The position numbers and the translations under genes were made by a program. A stretch of 10,389 bases of DNA from a virus (lineage: Duplodnaviria; Heunggongvirae; Uroviricota; Caudoviricetes): the IMG/VR virus record IMGVR_UViG_2711768019_000005; one strand, written 5' to 3'. The notes below the pieces were generated by a model, which was not told the origin of the DNA, ran no database searches, and was given only the letters and a program-made list of their open reading frames with translations. This document shows positions 1 through 10,389 of this stretch, one piece after another; position 1 is the stretch's first letter; the number at the start of each line of letters is the position of its first letter.

Positions 1-65
1 CTACGGCAGCAAGCCAGTAATGGGTTAAGTGATAACAGGTGTCTGGAAATATAGGGGCAAATCCA
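1..65 (+). mobile_element. IS2 right terminus (IRR), element body extends upstream of the window; bases 2-52 encode the InsD (orfB) C-terminus
   Basis: Bases 1-65 match the IS2 right end as I remember it and end in ...GGGGCAAATCCA at 65. Frame 2 reads RQQASNGLSDNRCLEI then TAG at 50-52, which matches the InsD C-terminus. The reading frame of the next gene starts abruptly at 66. Confidence 0.75.
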
Positions 66-173
66 GCGTTCATCAGCCCCCGCATTGCCGACAGGATCAC
101 AGACGGGGGGCGCAACTGGTTGTCGTTCAACTGGCCCAGCTACCGTTCTTGTATCAGAGGTGTGGCTGCATGA
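66..173 (+). pseudogene. 3' fragment of an upstream gene (probably the replication initiator or helicase loader) truncated by the IS2 insertion
   Basis: Open frame from the IS2 junction at 66 (…AFISPRIADRITDGGRNWLSFNWPSYRSCIRGVAA) ending at TGA 171-173, which overlaps the helicase ATG at 170 (ATGA coupling). No start codon or RBS of its own. Product identity is inferred from position only. Confidence 0.35.
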
Positions 174-1561
174 CAACACCAGTCTGGCGTAATGATGACC
201 TGGAAGGCGCTGTCATTGGCGCATTCTTTCTGCGTGGGGCAGATCATGAAGTGATGGATATTCTGATCACACTACCGGCGGACATTTTTTCTGTACGAGC
301 GTATCGGGATATCTACACAGGCATCTGCAGACAGGCCCGTGTTTCAGGAGTGATTGACCCCGTGCTGTTGTGTAATGAGATGCCGGAACTTGCCCCGGTG
401 ATTACTGATACCGGGCGTAAAACCTGGGTGAAGTCTTCACTGGAGCACTATGTTGCAGCGTTGCGGCGCAATGCCGCACTGCGCGATGCAGAAAAAACAC
501 TGAATGAGGCGCTGCAGAAATTACGTGATGCGCATACCTGTGAAGCAGCTGAAGATGCCCTGAAGGATGCGCAGAACATGATGGTCACACTGTCGACAGG
601 AAAGGGCGTCATTCAGCCGGTACATATTGATGATGTGCTTCCGGAAGTGGTTGAGCGTGTTGAATGCCGGAATCAGGGGCTGGAGAAATCCAGGACGTTG
701 ATGACCGGTATTGATGAACTGGACGCAAAAACAGGCGGTATGGAGCCCGGAGACCTGGTATTCATTGCCGCCCGTCCTTCGATGGGGAAAACCGAACTTG
801 CGCTGGACATCATCGACAAGGTGACTGAGCAGGGGCATGGTGTGCTTCTGTTCACCATGGAGATGGCGAACATCCAGATTGGTGAACGTATGGTGTCTGC
901 GGCTGGAGGGATGCCAGTATCACGCCTGAAATCTGTGGCTCACTTTGAAGATGAAGACTGGGCGCGTTTCTCACAAGGGGTGGGGCGGATGACCGGGCGC
1001 AATATCTGGATGGTGGACCAGGCGAACCTGACCATTGATGAGATATGCGCAACAACGAAACACCATCTGATTAAACATCCGGAAACGGCGCTGGTGGTGG
1101 TTGATTATCTCGGGCTGATAAAAACCCGAACCACGGGGCGTCATGACCTTGCCGTGGGTGAAATCTCAAAGGGGCTTAAAGGCCTGGCAAAATCCGGTGG
1201 TTTTCCGTTGATTGCGCTGAGCCAGCTCTCCCGCGGTGTGGAGTCCAGACCCAATAAACGTCCCATGAACTCAGACCTGAAAAATTCCGGAGAAATAGAG
1301 GCGGATGCAGACATCATTCTGATGCTTTACAGGGATGAAGTGTACAACCCGGATACACAGGCTACAGGCATAGCAGAAATTAATATCACGAAACAACGTA
1401 ACGGTTCTCTGGGGACGATTTACCGGCGTTTTTATAACGGACATTTTCTGCCTGTGGACCAGGAAAGCGCACAGGTTCTTTCCACCCCAATGCGGCAGCC
1501 CCAGCCGCGCAGATACAGCAATACACGTACCGACAGCAGTAAGATGGAGCGTTTCTTTTGA
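170..1561 (+). CDS. DnaB-family replicative DNA helicase (phage P22 gene 12-like)
   Basis: Track ORF 29..1561; the first in-frame ATG outside IS2 is at 170 (MTTPVWRNDDLEGAVIGAFF, a DnaB N-terminal-like segment). Walker A AARPSMGKT, Walker B VVVDYLGL, and a C-terminal SQLSRGVE…DADIILMLYRDEVYN motif are present. The track start at 29 is a GTG inside IS2. Confidence 0.9.
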   Translation: MTTPVWRNDDLEGAVIGAFFLRGADHEVMDILITLPADIFSVRAYRDIYTGICRQARVSGVIDPVLLCNEMPELAPVITDTGRKTWVKSSLEHYVAALRRNAALRDAEKTLNEALQKLRDAHTCEAAEDALKDAQNMMVTLSTGKGVIQPVHIDDVLPEVVERVECRNQGLEKSRTLMTGIDELDAKTGGMEPGDLVFIAARPSMGKTELALDIIDKVTEQGHGVLLFTMEMANIQIGERMVSAAGGMPVSRLKSVAHFEDEDWARFSQGVGRMTGRNIWMVDQANLTIDEICATTKHHLIKHPETALVVVDYLGLIKTRTTGRHDLAVGEISKGLKGLAKSGGFPLIALSQLSRGVESRPNKRPMNSDLKNSGEIEADADIILMLYRDEVYNPDTQATGIAEINITKQRNGSLGTIYRRFYNGHFLPVDQESAQVLSTPMRQPQPRRYSNTRTDSSKMERFF

Positions 1562-1572
1562 ACAACCAGACA

Positions 1573-1815
1573 ATGACTTTTACCTCTGAACAATTGCGTA
1601 AACACGCGCAGGAAATGTTGCGACAGGCGGAACAACTGGAAAAAACAGGTGTAACAAAAGATGCCATTCGTCGGGATATGGTGCCAGCGCTCAGGGAACT
1701 GATGCAGGCGAAACATCGCGCACAAAAAGCGGTGGATGAGCTCGTTGATTGTGTGGCAGAGCTGGAAACCAAAGTTGGAAAGTTTGAAAAAATGGTGCAG
1801 GAGGTGCTGCGCTGA
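1573..1815 (+). CDS. hypothetical small protein (nin-region, predicted coiled coil)
   Basis: Track ORF 1558..1815 starts with TTG; first ATG at 1573 (MTFTSEQLRK…). 80 aa, charged and helical-looking. Its stop TGA 1813-1815 overlaps the rusA ATG at 1815. No recognisable family. Confidence 0.5.
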   Translation: MTFTSEQLRKHAQEMLRQAEQLEKTGVTKDAIRRDMVPALRELMQAKHRAQKAVDELVDCVAELETKVGKFEKMVQEVLR

Positions 1816-2186
1816 TGCGCCATGAGTTTATTTTACCTTATCCGCCGACGGTGAATACTTACTGGCGACGTCGTGGCAGCACATATTTTGTATCAAAAGT
1901 TGGTGAGCGTTATCGCCGTGATGTGACGCTAATTGTTCGCCAGCAGCGGCTGAAATTAAACCTGTCCGGAAGGCTGGCGATAAAGATTATTGCAGAGCCA
2001 CCGGATAAGCGCCGTCGTGACCTGGACAATATCCTGAAAGCACCACTGGATGCGCTGACGCATGCCGGACTACTCATAGACGACGAGCAGTTTGATGAAA
2101 TCAATATTGTGCGCGGTCAGCTCGTTCCTGGTGGGCGACTGGGCGTGAAGATTTATGAAATCACAGGTGATAACGATGGCGCGTGA
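1815..2186 (+). CDS. rusA: RusA-family Holliday junction resolvase
   Basis: 123 aa with the RusA signature: [45 protein letters not shown], and [11 protein letters not shown], which parallels E. coli RusA (PDRRRRDLDN…DDAQV). Sits in the usual nin-region position upstream of Q. Confidence 0.9.
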
Positions 2187-2562
2187 TATTCAGCAGGTTA
2201 TGGAACGGTGGGGGGCTTGGGCTGCAAACACTCATGAAGATGTATCCTGGGCGTCGATCGCTGCTGGTTTTAAAGGGTTAATTCCGTCGAAAGTGAAATC
2301 ACGCCCTCAGTGTTCTGATGATGATGCAATGATAATTTGTGGCTGTATGGCCCGGTTGAACAAGAAAAATCAGGATTTGCACGATTTGCTGGTGGATTAT
2401 TACGTAGGTGGAATGACTTTTATGAGTCTGGCACGGAAACATGGGTGTTCGGATACCTGTATTGGCAAGCGCCTGCAGAAAGCGGAAGGGGTTATTGATG
2501 GCATGTTGATGATGCTTGATATCCGGCTGGAGATGGACAGATACGTAGAACGAATTATGTAG
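2176..2562 (+). CDS. late-gene antitermination protein Q (QuuD / phage 21-type Q family)
   Basis: Track ORF 2155..2562; the likely start is ATG 2176 ([18 protein letters not shown]…), overlapping the rusA stop as ATGGCGCGTGA. Cysteine motif [16 protein letters not shown] and resemblance to DLP12 QuuD as remembered. A late promoter follows 5 bp after the stop. The alternative start at 2155 is not excluded. Confidence 0.85.
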
Positions 2563-2566
2563 GTGC

Positions 2567-2596
2567 TTGACCAGACACATTGTCCGGGGCTATATT
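2567..2596 (+). promoter_or_regulatory. candidate late promoter PR' (with overlapping Q-utilisation site)
   Basis: TTGACC at 2567-2572, a 17-18 nt spacer, then CTATAT/TATATT at 2590-2596, starting 5 bp after the Q stop. This is the same placement as lambda PR'. An inverted repeat cgccag-N6-ctggcg at 2604-2621 lies in the initial transcribed region. Confidence 0.5.
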
Positions 2597-2657
2597 CCTC
2601 ACGCGCCAGCAAAATCTGGCGTCGGGATTGGAACCCCGGATAGAGACCGCGACAGAC

Positions 2658-2682
2658 ACACGCCGCGAGCGTGTTTTTTATT
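2658..2682 (+). terminator. rho-independent terminator, candidate tR' ending a short PR' leader RNA
   Basis: Stem acacgc (2658-2663), loop cgcga, stem gcgtgt (2669-2674), followed by TTTTTTATT. About 55-80 nt downstream of the predicted PR' start. Confidence 0.55.
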
Positions 2683-2871
2683 GTCGTATGCACGCGCACA
2701 TCTGAATTATGGTGGGGCGCATGGGGGAGCTGAAAAGCTCGCCGGTCGGTTTCCCGGTAGTTCCAACCCTGTGCGTCTCACCACCCGATGATTGGAACCT
2801 GACGGTGTTGACAGTTTCAGGTTTGCAGTTTACATTTCCCCGCGGTGCTCAAAACACCTCGAAAGCGGTAT

Positions 2872-2899
2872 CCACACCCGATAGCCATGTGGTTTTTTT
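2872..2899 (+). terminator. second terminator-like hairpin with T7 run
   Basis: ccaca (2872-2876) pairs with tgtgg (2888-2892) around an 11-nt loop, followed by TTTTTTT at 2893-2899. Weaker than the first hairpin. Confidence 0.3.
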
Positions 2900-3042
2900 G
2901 TGTCCAGAATTCTTGGTTTATGACCGGGTGTGCGGCTAATACAATACCAGCAATGGAAATACGCCCGCCGACTTTCGACGGTTTTGAGCGCCCGGTCACC
3001 CTCTCAAAAGGGGTAAATCAAAATATTCGAAAGGACATGTCT

Positions 3043-3606
3043 ATGAATCGCACGTCTATTGAAAAACTCCCGTCACTTACGCATAACCATCTTCCTGTCA
3101 TGACAACAGAGCTGCTGGCTGATTTGTACGGAACAGAGCGCCAGCGTTTGACAAACAATTTCAATCGAAACAAAGAACGGTTTATAGAAGGTAAACATTT
3201 TTTCCTGATAGAAGGTGATGCGTTACGAGAGTTGAAGAACGAAAACTCTTTAAGAGTTTCTGTGAAAATTGCCCGTAACGTTCGCTCCCTCATCCTCTGG
3301 ACAGAACGTGGCGCAGCCCGTCACGCCAAAATGCTCGAAACCGATCAGGCGTGGGAAGTGTTCGAAAAACTGGAAGACTGTTATTTCAACCAGAAACAGC
3401 CACCAGCGGCACAAAACACATCTATCGAAAATGATGGATGCGCATTACTGAGCCACTTCGATAAACACGGTCAGGTTGAGTTCACGGAAAAGGTACCCGC
3501 CGATGCGATGGTATGTACTCTGGAACGGTTTAAATTTTATCTGGAGCAACACGGGTGGATCGTTGCCCGTAAAGAGCAACTGGTGGAGCGGTTGATGCGG
3601 TTTTAA
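3043..3606 (+). CDS. ORF6N-domain protein (KilA-N/Bro-N-related putative DNA-binding or antirepressor-like protein)
   Basis: Track ORF 2845..3606 starts with GTG; AAGGA at 3031-3035 precedes ATG 3037/3043 (MNRTSIEKLPSLTHNHLPVMTTELLADLYGTERQRLTNNFNRNKERFIEGKHFFL…), which resembles the ORF6N domain. Flanked by terminators at 2872-2899 and 3683-3707. Confidence 0.7.
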   Translation: MNRTSIEKLPSLTHNHLPVMTTELLADLYGTERQRLTNNFNRNKERFIEGKHFFLIEGDALRELKNENSLRVSVKIARNVRSLILWTERGAARHAKMLETDQAWEVFEKLEDCYFNQKQPPAAQNTSIENDGCALLSHFDKHGQVEFTEKVPADAMVCTLERFKFYLEQHGWIVARKEQLVERLMRF

Positions 3607-3682
3607 AAATTTTTTCCGAAAACTTTACGATCGTAAAAAGTTGAATATCCTGTTAAGAGTGGTTACTACGCCACACAGCTTA

Positions 3683-3707
3683 AACCCGCCGATGAGCGGG
3701 TTTTTTT
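3683..3707 (+). terminator. rho-independent terminator after the ORF6N gene
   Basis: cccgc (3685-3689), loop cgatga, gcggg (3696-3700), then TTTTTTT at 3701-3707. Confidence 0.7.
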
Positions 3708-3757
3708 ATACCTGAAAAACGGCACAGGACGTTAAACGTGCTGGTGGTCAGATGAGT

Positions 3758-3786
3758 TTGCAGATGTGATGACATATGGTTATTAT
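3758..3786 (+). promoter_or_regulatory. candidate sigma70 promoter for the tRNA cluster
   Basis: TTGCAG at 3758-3763, 17-nt spacer, TATTAT at 3781-3786, about 10 nt upstream of the first tRNA 5' end at 3796. Confidence 0.35.
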
Positions 3787-3795
3787 TCTGCCTCC

Positions 3796-3872
3796 GGCCC
3801 TTTAGCTCAGTTGGTCAGAGCGAGCGACTCATAATCGCCAGGTCGCTGGTTCAAGTCCAGCAAGGGCCACCA
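3796..3872 (+). tRNA. tRNA with anticodon CAU, ileX/ileZ-like (tRNA-Ile2 lysidine type; would be read as Met by anticodon alone)
   Basis: Manual cloverleaf: acceptor GGCCCTT/AAGGGCC, D-arm AGCTCAGTTGG, anticodon loop CTCATAA, T-arm GGTTCAAGTCC, encoded CCA. Close to E. coli ileX as remembered. Confidence 0.85.
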
Positions 3873-3873
3873 A

Positions 3874-3950
3874 CCACCACTAGCTCATCCGGATAGAGCA
3901 TCAACCTTCTAAGTTGACGGTGCGAGGTTCGAGTCCTCGGTGGTGGGCCA
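3874..3950 (+). tRNA. tRNA-Arg (anticodon UCU; reads AGA/AGG)
   Basis: Acceptor CCACCAC/GTGGTGG, D-arm TAGCTCATCCGGATAGAGC, anticodon loop CTTCTAA, T-arm CGAGG-TTCGAGT-CCTCG, discriminator G plus CCA. Begins 1 nt after the preceding tRNA. Confidence 0.85.
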
Positions 3951-3952
3951 GC

Positions 3953-4028
<76 letters not shown>

Positions 4029-4031
4029 TAT

Positions 4032-4106
<75 letters not shown>

Positions 4107-4723
4107 GCGAGATTTGAGACGAAGGTTGTTATTTGCACTGACACAATATTGTGTGGGAATGTCTGACTCCTTACCATCTCCTGTTCTGTGATGTTGTTTT
4201 GTTGCAGTTCCAGTGCTCTTTTTTCAGCACCAGAATGGTGCATTGTCGGTCAGGTTACGTAGTGAACCTCTGGCAGGGGACTGATGATTCATCATTCTGG
4301 TGTTGTAAATATCTCTTCGGACAACTTACAAAATATTCTAAGCAAACCCCGGGAACACACTCTTAACTGCCTTGGCTGGCGGTTTTTTGTACAGTGCTCG
4401 GTATGTGTGAGCTGGAAATCAGATTTTGCATGGACTGGAATCATGCTGTTATTTAGGGGCGAAGAACTGGCTTTTTCTTCCGCCTTCTCACCAGTAACGA
4501 TTAGAAAAATAATGAAATGCCCCCCTCCGGGGAGGAGGACCGTAGAAAAAAGGACCCGCCAGCAAAAACATTGGGGATGAACAGCTTTCGCTACTCAGAT
4601 TGCTGGCGGGTAAAGTTCCTCATGAATTAAGAATGCTACGCGATCTTTTTTAATGGAAATGAAAATTATTGTCAATTAGTCGTGCGTGTTTTTTCATACA
4701 ATATTGGTAAAGGTGATTCAGGA

Positions 4724-5250
4724 CAGTCATCGGTTCGTCTGAGAATGACGTGCAACTGCGCACGCGACACCCGGAGACAACGGCTGACTAAGCTTACTCC
4801 CCATCCCCGGGCAATAAGGGCGCGTGCGCTATCCACTTTTTTGCCCGTCCATATTCAACGGCTTCTTTGAGGAGTTCATTTTCCATCGTTTTCTTGCCGA
4901 GCAGGCGCTGGAGTTCTTTAATCTGCTTCATGGCGGCAGCAAGTTCAGAGGCAGGAACAACCTGTTCTCCGGCGGCGACAGCAGTAAGACTTCCTTCCTG
5001 GTATTGCTTACGCCAGAGAAATAACTGGCTGGCTGCTACACCATGTTGCCGGGCAACGAGGGAGACCGTCATCCCCGGTTCAAAGCTCTGCTGAACAATT
5101 GCGATCTTTTCCTGTGTGGTACGCCGTCTGCGTTTCTCCGGCCCTAAGACATCAATCATCTGTACTCCAATGACTAGTCTAAAAACTAGTATTAAGACTA
5201 TCACTTATTTAAGTGATACTGGTTGTCTGGAGATTCAGGGGGCCAGTCTA
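4724..5250 (-). mobile_element. IS2, internally truncated copy: intact left end (IRL at 5250), complete insC, first ~70 bp of insD, missing the rest of insD and IRR
   Basis: The reverse complement of 5160-5250 reads TAGACTGGCCCCCTGAATCTCCAGACAACCAGTATCACTTAAATAAGTGATAGTC…, the IS2 left terminus. IS2 homology continues through insC into insD and stops at 4724, where the sequence diverges from IS2. Confidence 0.85.
4794..5159 (-). CDS. insC: IS2 transposase OrfA (InsC)
   Basis: Track ORF 4794..5204 (-); the true start is the ATG at 5157-5159 ([56 protein letters not shown]…), which matches IS2 InsC (121 aa) as remembered. Confidence 0.9.
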
Positions 5251-5252
5251 GT

Positions 5253-5273
5253 AAGGCTGCGAGAGGTGAATAA
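5253..5273 (+). pseudogene. remnant of holin gene (phage 21 S21 pinholin-like), last 6 codons only
   Basis: Directly after the IS2 IRL, aag gct gcg aga ggt gaa taa encodes KAARGE-stop, the same as the S21 C-terminus (…REDRRKAARGE) as remembered. Its TAA overlaps the endolysin ATG (TAATG), as expected at an S-R junction. The rest of the holin gene is absent. Confidence 0.45.
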
Positions 5274-5770
5274 TGTCGCCATCATTACGCAAGGCTGTTG
5301 CAGTTGCTATTGGTGGCGGGGCTGTTGCTATAGCATCTGTGTTAATCACTGGCCCAGGTGGTAACGATGGTCTGGAAGGTGTCAGCTACATACCATACAA
5401 AGATATCATTGGTGTATGGACTGTATGTCACGGACACACCGGAAAAGACATCATGCTCGGTAAAACGTATACCGAAGCAGAATGCAAAGCCCTCCTGAAT
5501 AAAGACCTTGCCACTGTCGCCAGACAAATTAACCCGTACATCAAAGTCGATATACCGGAAACAACGCGCGGCGCTCTTTACTCGTTCGTTTACAACGTGG
5601 GCGCTGGCAATTTCAGAACATCGACGCTTCTTCGCAAAATAAACCAGGGCTATATCAAAGGCGCATGTGACCAGCTATGTCGCTGGACATATGCTGGCGG
5701 TAAGCAATGGAAAGGGCTGATGACCCGTCGTGAGATTGAGCGTGAAGTCTGTTTGTGGGGGCAGCAATGA
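5273..5770 (+). CDS. SAR endolysin (phage 21 R21 / DLP12 RrrD-like lysozyme, T4 lysozyme fold)
   Basis: 165 aa. N-terminal Gly/Ala-rich signal-anchor-release segment [20 protein letters not shown], then lysozyme motifs [10 protein letters not shown]…[11 protein letters not shown]…[17 protein letters not shown] lies 6 nt upstream of ATG 5273. Confidence 0.9.
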
Positions 5771-6231
5771 GCAGAGTCACCGCGATTATCTCCGCTCTGG
5801 TTATCTGCATCATCGTCCGCCTGTCATGGGCTGTTAATCATTACCGTGATAACGCCATTACCTACAAAGAGCAGCGCGACAAAAACGCAAGAGAACTGAA
5901 GCTGGCGAACGCAACCATTACTGACATGCAGCAGAGACAGCGTGATGTTAATGCACTCGATGCTAAATACACGAAGGAGTTAGCTGATGCGAAAGCTGAA
6001 AATGAAACTCTGCGCGCTGATGTTGCCGCTGGTCGTCGTCGGTTGCACATCAAAGCAGTCTGTCAGTCAGTGCGTGAAGCCACCACCGCCTCCGGCGTGG
6101 ATAATGCAACCAGCCCCCGACTGGCAGACACCGCTGAACGGGATTATTTCACCCTCAGAGAGCGGCTGATGACGATGCAGATGCAACTGGAAGGGGCACA
6201 GGAGTATATCCGCACTCAGTGCATTAAGTAG
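5767..6231 (+). CDS. Rz: Rz i-spanin
   Basis: Track ORF begins at GTG 5755; ATG 5767 overlaps the endolysin stop (ATGA). N-terminal transmembrane segment [14 protein letters not shown] followed by a charged coiled-coil periplasmic domain, about 154 aa. Confidence 0.85.
5987..6169 (+). CDS. Rz1: Rz1 o-spanin lipoprotein, embedded in the +1 frame of Rz
   Basis: [24 protein letters not shown]…: signal peptide with lipobox (VVGC) and a proline-rich mature region ([19 protein letters not shown]). AAGGAG at 5974-5979 lies 7 nt before ATG 5987. Fully nested within Rz. Confidence 0.75.
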
Positions 6232-8981: not shown

Positions 8982-9164
8982 ATGATCATGCTGATTCTCG
9001 CGCCTCTGGTGGGCGTGCTGGGTGCGCTTTTGCTGGCGTATGGTGCCTGGCTGATTTATCCCCCGGCGGGTTTTGTTGTTGCCGGGGCGCTGTGCCTGTT
9101 CTGGTCGTGGCTGGTGGCGCGATATCTCGACCGTACACGGCAGTCTGTCGGCGGAGGTAAATAG
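8982..9164 (+). CDS. small hydrophobic membrane protein, hypothetical
   Basis: 60 aa with two predicted transmembrane stretches ([37 protein letters not shown]). Sits between terminase and portal; GAGGT at 8974-8978 precedes ATG 8982/8988. Overlaps the portal start. Confidence 0.5.
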
Positions 9165-10320
9165 TGTTCTTTTCGGGATTATTTCAACGAAAAAGCGATG
9201 TGCCGGTGACCACGCCAGCAGAACTGCTGATGCTATCGGGCTGTCATACGACACCTATACCGGAAAGCGGATCAGTAGCCAGCGGGCCATGCGCCTGACG
9301 GCGGTCTATTCTTGCGTCAGGGTGCTGGCAGAGTCTGTTGGTATGCTGCCCTGCAGTCTCTACAAAATCAGCGGTACCCTGAAAACACGGGCGGTGGATG
9401 AACGACTGCATAAGTTGGTTTCGGCAAAACCTAATGGCTACATGACACCGCAGGAATTCTGGGAGCTGGTTATTGTCTGCCTGTGTCTACGGGGGAATTT
9501 TTACGCCTACAAGGTAAAGGCACTGGGAGAAGTGGTGGAGCTTCTTCCGATAGATCCGGGCTGTGTGGAACCGAAGCTGAACAGCCAGTGGCAGCCGGTT
9601 TATCAGGTGACGTTTCCGGATGGTTCCGTGGATGTGTTGACCCAGAATGAAATCTGGCATGTGCGCACCCTGACGCTGGATGGACTTGTCGGGCTGAATC
9701 CCATTGCGTATGCGCGTGAGGCCATTTCACTGGCAGCGGCAACCGAGGAGCACGGTGCCAGGTTGTTTAGTAATGGTGCGGTGACATCCGGTGTGTTGCG
9801 TACGGAACAAAAGCTCACGCCGGATGCTTACGAGCGTCTGAAGAAAGATTTTGAGGAGTGTCACACGGGGCTTGGCAATGCTCACCGCCCGATGATTCTG
9901 GAAATGGGGCTGGACTGGAAGTCGATGGCGCTGAACGCCGAGGACAGTCAGTTCCTGGAAACCCGCAAGTTTCAGCTGGAAGAAATCTGTCGTCTGTTCC
10001 GGGTGCCGTTGCACATGGTGCAGAACACCGATCGCGCCACCTTCAACAATATCGAAGAGCTGGGGCTGGGATTTATCAACTATTCACTGGTGCCGTATCT
10101 GACCCGCATCGAACAGCGGATCAACACCGGACTGGTACGAAAAAGTAAGCAGGGCGTTTATTACGCCAAATTTAACGCCGGGGCGTTACTGCGCGGGGAT
10201 ATGAAGTCCCGTTTTGAAGCCTACGCCACCGGGATCAACTGGGGAATTTACTCTTCCAATGACTGCCGCGACCTGGAAGATATGAATCCGCGTCCCGGTG
10301 GTGTAATGCCGATCAGTTAA
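9164..10320 (+). CDS. phage portal protein (HK97 family), apparently frameshifted near the 5' end
   Basis: Portal motifs in frame 1 (AMRLTAVYSCVRVLAESVGMLP…NPIAYAREAISLAAATEEHGARLF…). The only good start is GTG 9164 (GGAGG 6 nt upstream), in frame 2, giving [12 protein letters not shown]… which stops at 9296-9298. Frame 1 has no ATG before 9289, and the track start TTG 9073 overlaps the upstream ORF by 90 bp with no RBS. Confidence 0.8.
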
Positions 10321-10354
10321 GGATCAGTTGACCGATCCAGTGGCTGTGTAAGAA

Positions 10355-10387
10355 TCCGGAAACGCTCACTTGTTTCCGGATTTTTTT
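10355..10387 (+). terminator. rho-independent terminator immediately downstream of the portal ORF
   Basis: tccggaaac (10355-10363), 8-nt loop, gtttccgga (10372-10380), then TTTTTTT (10381-10387). Confidence 0.55.
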
Positions 10388-10389
10388 AT

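Follow-up and report, generated by a model that had tools for sequence, protein, structure and literature searches.

In this study, we analysed the lysis region of a 10,389-nucleotide (nt) stretch of viral DNA, IMG/VR record IMGVR_UViG_2711768019_000005, which is the entire contig CWWE01000144.1 of the draft short-read assembly GCA_001248445.1 and is hereafter called the window. We conclude with good confidence that an immobile scar of the insertion sequence (IS) IS2 has inactivated the pinholin gene in a lysis cassette of the phage-21/DLP12 type, within a prophage remnant of about 10 kb and of Shigella sonnei type, and that it did so along the following path. A complete IS2 would first have inserted between codons 64 and 65 of the holin gene, with its left inverted repeat (IRL) towards the endolysin gene and GTAAG as the presumed target. 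An illegitimate deletion of 1,066 bp would then have taken IS2 nt 528-1331, the second copy of the target, 193 nt of the holin gene, its ribosome-binding site (RBS) and a terminator, halting at the foot of the terminator hairpin. Finally, the scarred allele would have entered the remnant by homologous recombination, and need not have formed in this copy. The original prediction for this locus, made from the DNA letters, had likewise proposed an IS2 insertion into the holin gene followed by a deletion of the rest of that gene and of the right part of IS2, and comparison of the flanks and the junction supports this order of insertion and deletion as the simplest path.

Coordinates given here are those of the window, and features lie on its plus strand unless the minus strand is named. 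The IS2 fragment occupies 4724-5250 on the minus strand and comprises nt 1-527 of the 1331-nt element, IRL included, as established by megablast (IS2 at 4724-5250/5252, 99.6% identity) and by comparison with a full copy. As the full reference we used the 1331-bp IS2 of E. coli EPSSH018 (L003, positions 2098-3428), which is flanked by a clean 5-bp target duplication; the fragment aligns to nt 527-1 of it on the minus strand with 2 mismatches in 527 nt, and to the neighbouring IS2 of S. sonnei 53G with 6 mismatches. The IRL of IS2 begins TAGACTGGCCCCC..., and the terminus in the window, ...GGGGGCCAGTCTA, is exact and ends at 5250. It is followed at 5251-5255 by GTAAG, the presumed target duplication on the IRL side, the copy on the other side having been deleted. 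Matches of the lysis genes and of IS2 extend over hundreds of bases at identities of at least 95-99% and are not due to chance.

Within the fragment, insC (IS2 OrfA, the repressor, a helix-turn-helix protein) is intact at 4794-5159 on the minus strand and encodes 121 amino acids (aa); it matches PF01527 and, over 121 of 121 positions, NCBIfam NF006928 'IS2 repressor TnpA' with 276 bits against a cutoff of 229. The InsC repressor could thus still be encoded from the fragment. What is left of insD, by contrast with a mobile element, is a 5' stub of 37 codons (4724-4836, minus strand, by translation), as had been predicted when the left end of IS2 was placed at 5250 and its truncation inside insD at 4724. 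The stub runs on into a chimeric 54-aa open reading frame (ORF) at 4672-4836 on the minus strand, in which the 37 insD codons are followed by 17 codons of antisense phage leader; an exact-protein look-up of this InsD' frame found no called gene on record, and the ORF is a junction artefact, not a real gene. The fragment has no insD DDE (rve) domain and no adjoining right inverted repeat (IRR), the sole IRR in the window (1-65) belonging to another copy. Because the IRR and the DDE domain are gone, the fragment is immobile and incapable of transposition.

Between the fragment and the endolysin gene lie the last 23 nt of a gene for a class II holin (pinholin) of the S21 type, identified at 5251-5273 by comparison with intact relatives. 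They read GT AAG GCT GCG AGA GGT GAA TAA, that is, the tail (R)KAARGE-stop, and their final A is shared with the endolysin ATG at 5273. In the intact relatives, these 23 nt form the 3' end of an ORF of 71 aa closing in ...KRKAARGE, which matches PF04971 'Bacteriophage P21 holin S' (E=1.5e-35), and the annotated pinholin of phage 434 has the same C-terminal ending. The prediction that seven codons of a holin frame, KAARGE and a stop overlapping the endolysin start, remain here, and that KAARGE is how S21-type holins of related phages and prophages end, is therefore borne out, the seven being six codons and the stop. A class II holin has about 68-71 aa, two transmembrane helices and a charged tail, and six codons with a stop fall short of that. 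No ORF of a holin family was found in the window by six-frame hydropathy analysis and by PHROG, Pfam and NCBIfam scans of small ORFs. The region 4107-4723, where a displaced holin might have been sought, contains ORFs at 4151-4366 and 4284-4580 with neither a family match nor a membrane helix, and none of its six frames holds a holin-like transmembrane ORF. An apparent frameshift in the holin of one closed relative (L014, 4560-5000) was considered as well and set aside as a probable homopolymer sequencing error, four nearby runs each being one base short.

The DNA to the left of the fragment had been described as unrelated to the cassette, and here the earlier description fails: it is the phage's own leader. 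The native non-coding leader from the transfer RNA (tRNA) cluster to the holin (4107-4722) is colinear with closed relatives, and over 66-4722 the window differs from them by a single private single-nucleotide polymorphism (SNP), 4395 C>T. Leader, holin and endolysin run on without interruption in E. coli VL40 and in several closed genomes of S. sonnei type. The holin-intact ancestral state with identical flanks is found in seven closed genomes (L007, L009, L010, L012, L013, L017 and L019), so that what the window has lost can be read off directly. Against L017 and L007 the shortfall of phage DNA is 257 bp, or 262 bp if the duplicated target is counted; it covers an intrinsic terminator, the holin RBS region and, of the 216-nt holin gene, the first 193 nt. 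Together with the lost 5-bp target copy and IS2 nt 528-1331, the deletion amounts to 1,066 bp. The lost terminator consists of AGGCCAUCAG-loop-CUGAUGGCCU followed by U6CU3, a 10-bp stem with a folding energy of -32 kcal/mol (z=-3.6, computed in L007); in the intact L007 it occupies 4677-4712, and the holin start follows 45 nt downstream. The leader in the window stops at AGG, the first 3 nt of the destroyed terminator stem, and the left breakpoint thus falls at the foot of that stem.

At the joint itself stands one orphan base, A4723, where both the phage and IS2 have C when the window is set against IS2 and L017. The joint reads TTCAGG-A-CAGTCATC, and the undeleted sequence beyond the leader would continue ...TTCAGGCCATCAG. 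With C in place of A there would be a 3-bp microhomology, CCA, and the exact left breakpoint is ambiguous within 4723-4725. Transposase acts at IS ends. Because its breakpoints lie off the IS ends and the microhomology amounts to at most 3 bp, the joint is, on the evidence of its sequence, the signature of illegitimate recombination and not of transposase action. Two other routes to the deletion were rejected. A 7-bp microhomology, GGCCATC, is present in both phage and IS2, and a deletion joined there is predicted to give a product that differs from the window. Nor do we ascribe the deletion to the two IS2 copies of the window recombining with each other, as they are inverted and the DNA between them is colinear with relatives.

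The same breakpoints bear on whether insertion and deletion were separate events. Truncation and holin loss might have come about together in one aberrant IS2 event, such as an abortive or one-ended transposition or an IS-promoted adjacent deletion, and a single step would agree with the fact that we see only the end product and did not find the intermediate, a holin gene interrupted by a complete IS2. In the IS3 family, however, IS-promoted adjacent deletions start from one end of the IS and spare the element itself, whereas in the window one breakpoint is internal to IS2, at nt 527, with no IS end involved, and the other is at the foot of a hairpin, which fits illegitimate recombination. We therefore consider a single event quite unlikely.

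Several observations weigh against the history that we propose. The left junction is known from one short-read draft contig only, CWWE01000144.1, and the two further assemblies that carry the right junction break inside IS2, so the truncation is not independently replicated. Megablast of 120-nt junction queries against 5,426 complete E. coli genomes found no place covering at least 80% of either query, and exact-pattern scans for the left and right junctions gave zero matches in a set of species-representative genomes, which is uninformative in that Shigella is collapsed into E. coli there. The intermediate, a full IS2 in the holin gene, was not found, and both the order of events and the import by recombination are inferred.

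Given this record, the truncation could in principle be a product of assembly, in which junctions from different IS2 copies, or from a full-length one, were joined by scaffolding or gap closing, with no real truncation and no 257-bp deletion. The window is a whole draft contig with both ends in IS elements, IS2 is multi-copy in Shigella, the sister assemblies break inside IS2 and the base at the junction is unexplained, all of which would fit such an error. Against this, phage and IS2 share no k-mer at the joint (at most 3 bp), and collapse of an assembly graph cannot make such a joint; a contig extending from the leader would have entered the unique 262 bp of terminator and holin had they been present; both junctions lie in one small locus, in consistent orientation and with colinear flanks; and the fragment can be told from the neighbouring IS2 copy by the 6 positions noted above. 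An assembly artefact is accordingly very unlikely in our judgement.

The pattern of differences from the closest relatives suggests how the allele reached this remnant. The window is nearly identical to closed S. sonnei-type relatives, with 6-7 differences in 9,711 nt, which suggests that its isolate, too, is S. sonnei. All six of its differences from L017 fall inside 4395-5818, which with IS2 excluded makes up 896 of the 9,711 comparable nt (P~6e-7). Three of the six are known in other prophages, namely 5304T and 5317C (both in VL40 and FDAARGOS_943) and 5818C (in FDAARGOS_943). Because the SNPs are clustered and these alleles are common with other prophages, the 1.4-kb tract with the scar probably came in by homologous recombination, the donor being a somewhat divergent copy of this cassette. 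An identical IS2-IRL/GTAAGG junction is present in two more draft assemblies, L005 and L006, whose contigs both start inside IS2. L006 has the backbone of the window. L005 (CXGJ01000175.1, 1-3606) has a different one, with another Rz C-terminus, a VTT-domain gene and Terminase_3, and encodes an endolysin protein identical to that of the window. Evidently, either the cassette with the scar passed from one prophage to another or the backbones recombined, and the presence of the scar on two backbones fits the import of a scarred allele.

What remains of the cassette is what had been predicted, a signal-arrest-release (SAR) endolysin and spanins only: each has its family match (PF00959, PF03245 and PF06085), and family and hydropathy scans found no intact holin elsewhere in the window. 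The endolysin gene (5273-5770) encodes a 165-aa protein of the R21/RrrD type (PF00959, E=7.6e-44), with RrrD (4ZPU) and R21 (3HDE) as its best PDB matches (E~1e-106). The catalytic triad E35-D44-T50 (E-x8-D-x5-T) is present, and residues 8-26 form a weakly hydrophobic, Gly/Ala-rich helix, as a SAR domain should; Ile/Val allele differences aside, this helix departs from those of R21/RrrD by the single substitution A11V. The Shine-Dalgarno sequence GAGG (5263-5266) is retained 6 nt before the ATG, at a place equivalent to the annotated RBS in phage 434.

The spanin genes follow directly. Rz, the i-spanin, has 154 aa (5767-6231; PF03245, E=3e-52), and the Rz1 o-spanin lipoprotein is encoded within it in the +1 frame (5987-6169; PF06085, E=6.4e-20; phrog_3198). 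An N-terminal membrane helix and an embedded o-spanin gene, the marks of a two-component spanin, are both present. The change C18R in Rz (window 5818) places an arginine inside the N-terminal membrane helix. It first looked like a third private change of the cassette, but we put it down to a difference between alleles, since E. coli FDAARGOS_943 and FDAARGOS_944 match the 91-nt stretch around it at 100% identity.

Because the endolysin Shine-Dalgarno sequence is kept and the fragment contains no sense-strand terminator, R, Rz and Rz1 should still be expressible, in principle, from an upstream transcript; the search for terminator-like sites on the sense strand covered 4724-5272 and found none. 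A SAR endolysin without a holin is released spontaneously at a low rate, and lysis comes later, asynchronously and over a broader time (PMC9239132). The suggestion in the original prediction that lysis by this cassette would be unregulated or defective is thus a reasonable one. Its further statement, that the prophage is lysis-impaired, is true of the cassette and nearly moot for the element, since it presumes an inducible prophage and the window is a remnant with a truncated portal.

The endolysin also carries two private non-synonymous substitutions, D127Y (window 5651) and R136C (window 5678). Among 3,471 complete E. coli genomes, which together contain 5,129 copies of this stretch, none has either change; the best copy is 97.8% identical and differs at both sites. 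Both are also absent from 80 phage records. Among homologue cluster representatives, D127 is found in 120 of 120 and R136 in 116 of 120. The pair is common to exactly three contigs, the three with IS2 in the holin gene. Because they affect near-invariant positions, the enzyme may not be fully active, and lysis may be weaker still than the loss of the holin would make it. The substitutions fit relaxed selection after holin loss or, less probably, selection to blunt a lysin that is no longer timed.

In its strong form the second of these possibilities holds that the cell, once deprived of terminator and holin, was left open to a leaky SAR endolysin and that D127Y and R136C were selected as detoxifying changes. 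It would account for the confinement of the pair to the three scarred contigs, for its absence from the E. coli copies and phage records, and for the hits on near-invariant residues by changes that are both non-synonymous. The deletion did remove a strong terminator, and the clock published for S. sonnei makes it improbable that 498 nt would gain two new changes in 400 years (P~0.007). The tract, however, probably derives from an older, unsampled donor allele, so that the clock argument may not apply, and relaxed selection on an already useless cassette gives the same pattern. Adaptive attenuation is therefore unlikely in our view; if true, it would be a natural record of a bacterium disarming a holin-independent lysin.

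Could control of lysis have been kept by other means? A 60-aa ORF at 8982-9164, found by hydropathy scan between the large terminase and portal genes, has two predicted hydrophobic membrane helices and a basic, charged tail, resembles a class II holin in this and is the only other ORF in the window with a holin-like topology. It, or the holin of another resident prophage acting in trans, might supply the missing function, given that, as is well established, holins are very diverse and pinholins depolarise the membrane, which would let holins of any kind bring about the release of a SAR endolysin (see also PMC9239132). The ORF matches only phrog_502 'membrane protein' (E=2.8e-28), however, with no significant Pfam or NCBIfam match and no holin family; it is conserved amid packaging genes in relatives that keep their S21-type holin, with which it coexists; and no other holin is visible in the window. 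That the holin function persists in this way strikes us as highly improbable.

Judging by its boundaries and content, the element is a decayed lambdoid prophage remnant of S. sonnei type and of about 10 kb, as its IS2 and IS4 bounds, its truncated portal and the lack of a called immunity region in relatives show. Both ends of the contig lie within IS elements, an IS2 IRR at its start and an IS4-type element at its end. The IRR end (1-65) belongs to a separate IS2 copy, in the opposite orientation to the 4724-5250 fragment, and its sequence, ...TTAAGTGATAACAGGTGTCTGGAAATATAGGGGCAAATCCA, recurs unchanged at the end of the element with insC and insD upstream of dnaB in S. sonnei 53G (L019, 8657-9885). 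The left end of the IS4-type element (10304-10389, start approximate) is identical to S. sonnei 53G and interrupts the portal gene at about codon 338; at the same IS4 site 53G has next a gene for a 442-aa Nterm_IS4/DDE_Tnp_1 transposase. The same block of about 10 kb, with both IS boundaries, is present in closed chromosomes of about 4.7-5.0 Mb, including HE616528.1 (L019), which is Shigella sonnei 53G (PMC5447701). The portal is truncated in the block of closed relatives too, and beside the block these relatives have no called immunity region; both hold for holin-intact relatives as well. Since comparison with relatives points to neither a complete portal nor an immunity region, the loss of the holin would be a further step of decay and not the disabling of a live phage, and the remnant is predicted to be incapable of making particles even with an intact holin.

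The rest of the window comprises genes for a DnaB-like helicase, RusA, the antiterminator Q and an ORF6N anti-repressor-like protein, four tRNAs, the lysis region, an HNH endonuclease, the small and large terminase subunits, the 60-aa membrane ORF and the portal. The late antiterminator Q (2176-2562; PF06530 Phage_antitermQ, E=2.7e-52) is called as a 128-aa gene in relatives. Close behind it, a consensus scan only, together with the position relative to Q, gives a candidate late promoter, TTGACC-18-TATATT (2567-2596), and the scan alone gives a terminator-like hairpin directly after Q (2658-2674). The interval 2567-2674 is thus the probable start of the late transcript that would enter the lysis genes. 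The phage tRNA cluster (3796-4106; ARAGORN and the RefSeq annotation of VL40) consists of a tRNA with anticodon CAT, Arg-TCT, Thr-TGT and Gly-TCC and sits between the Q/ORF6N region and the lysis genes. Its first tRNA (CAT) is called Met by ARAGORN and Ile in RefSeq relatives, and a related prophage has Val instead of Gly.

All parts of this locus are textbook ones, IS2, an S21-type pinholin, an R21-type SAR endolysin and Rz/Rz1, and the allele is an instance of a known process. Its importance is small, in that it adds a single case to the record of IS-mediated gene losses in prophage remnants of Shigella type. It does hold lessons for annotation, in that the 23-nt holin tail should be called a pseudogene, the 527-nt IS2 stub an IS fragment and the seemingly unrelated flank a native leader. 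The locus could be used as a lineage marker within S. sonnei, and the paired private endolysin substitutions in all holin-less copies are a mildly interesting lead.

Compared with known systems, the cassette is closest in plan to that of phage 21 (S21, R21 and Rz/Rz1), with which it shares the gene order and the TAATG overlap of holin stop and endolysin start; the holin of the intact relative likewise has a dual Met start, the KAARGE tail and a PF04971 match. The window differs from phage 21 in that its holin gene is reduced to the final 23 nt and its R has the D127Y and R136C changes. DLP12 of E. coli K-12 (essD, rrrD/ybcS and rzpD/rzoD) is likewise a resident defective lambdoid remnant with the same type of cassette, and the likeness extends to the RefSeq names of the homologues (essD, rrrD and rzpD) and to RrrD (4ZPU) as best PDB match. 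DLP12 retains its essD holin, whereas in the window the holin has been deleted and an IS2 fragment stands in its place. A SAR endolysin and spanins with no adjoining holin are likewise found in phage Mu (SAR endolysin gp22, releasin gp25; PMC9239132). The arrangement of Mu is an evolved one under the control of the releasin, whereas the window lost its holin by accident, in the course of decay, and shows no evident releasin-like gene. Insertions into cassettes of the same type are known from E. coli EPSSH018, where the reference IS2 lies inside Rz (L003, 2098-3428) between copies of a 5-bp duplication, ACCGT, and from FDAARGOS_943, where IS600 lies inside the endolysin gene (L020, 1884-3040). 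Both are simple insertions of complete elements, whereas in the window the IS itself is truncated and part of its target deleted. IS2 and IS4 have expanded in S. sonnei, where IS-driven pseudogenisation continues (PMC7373316), and the two insertions, like the scar in the window, fit this IS-driven pseudogenisation of Shigella.

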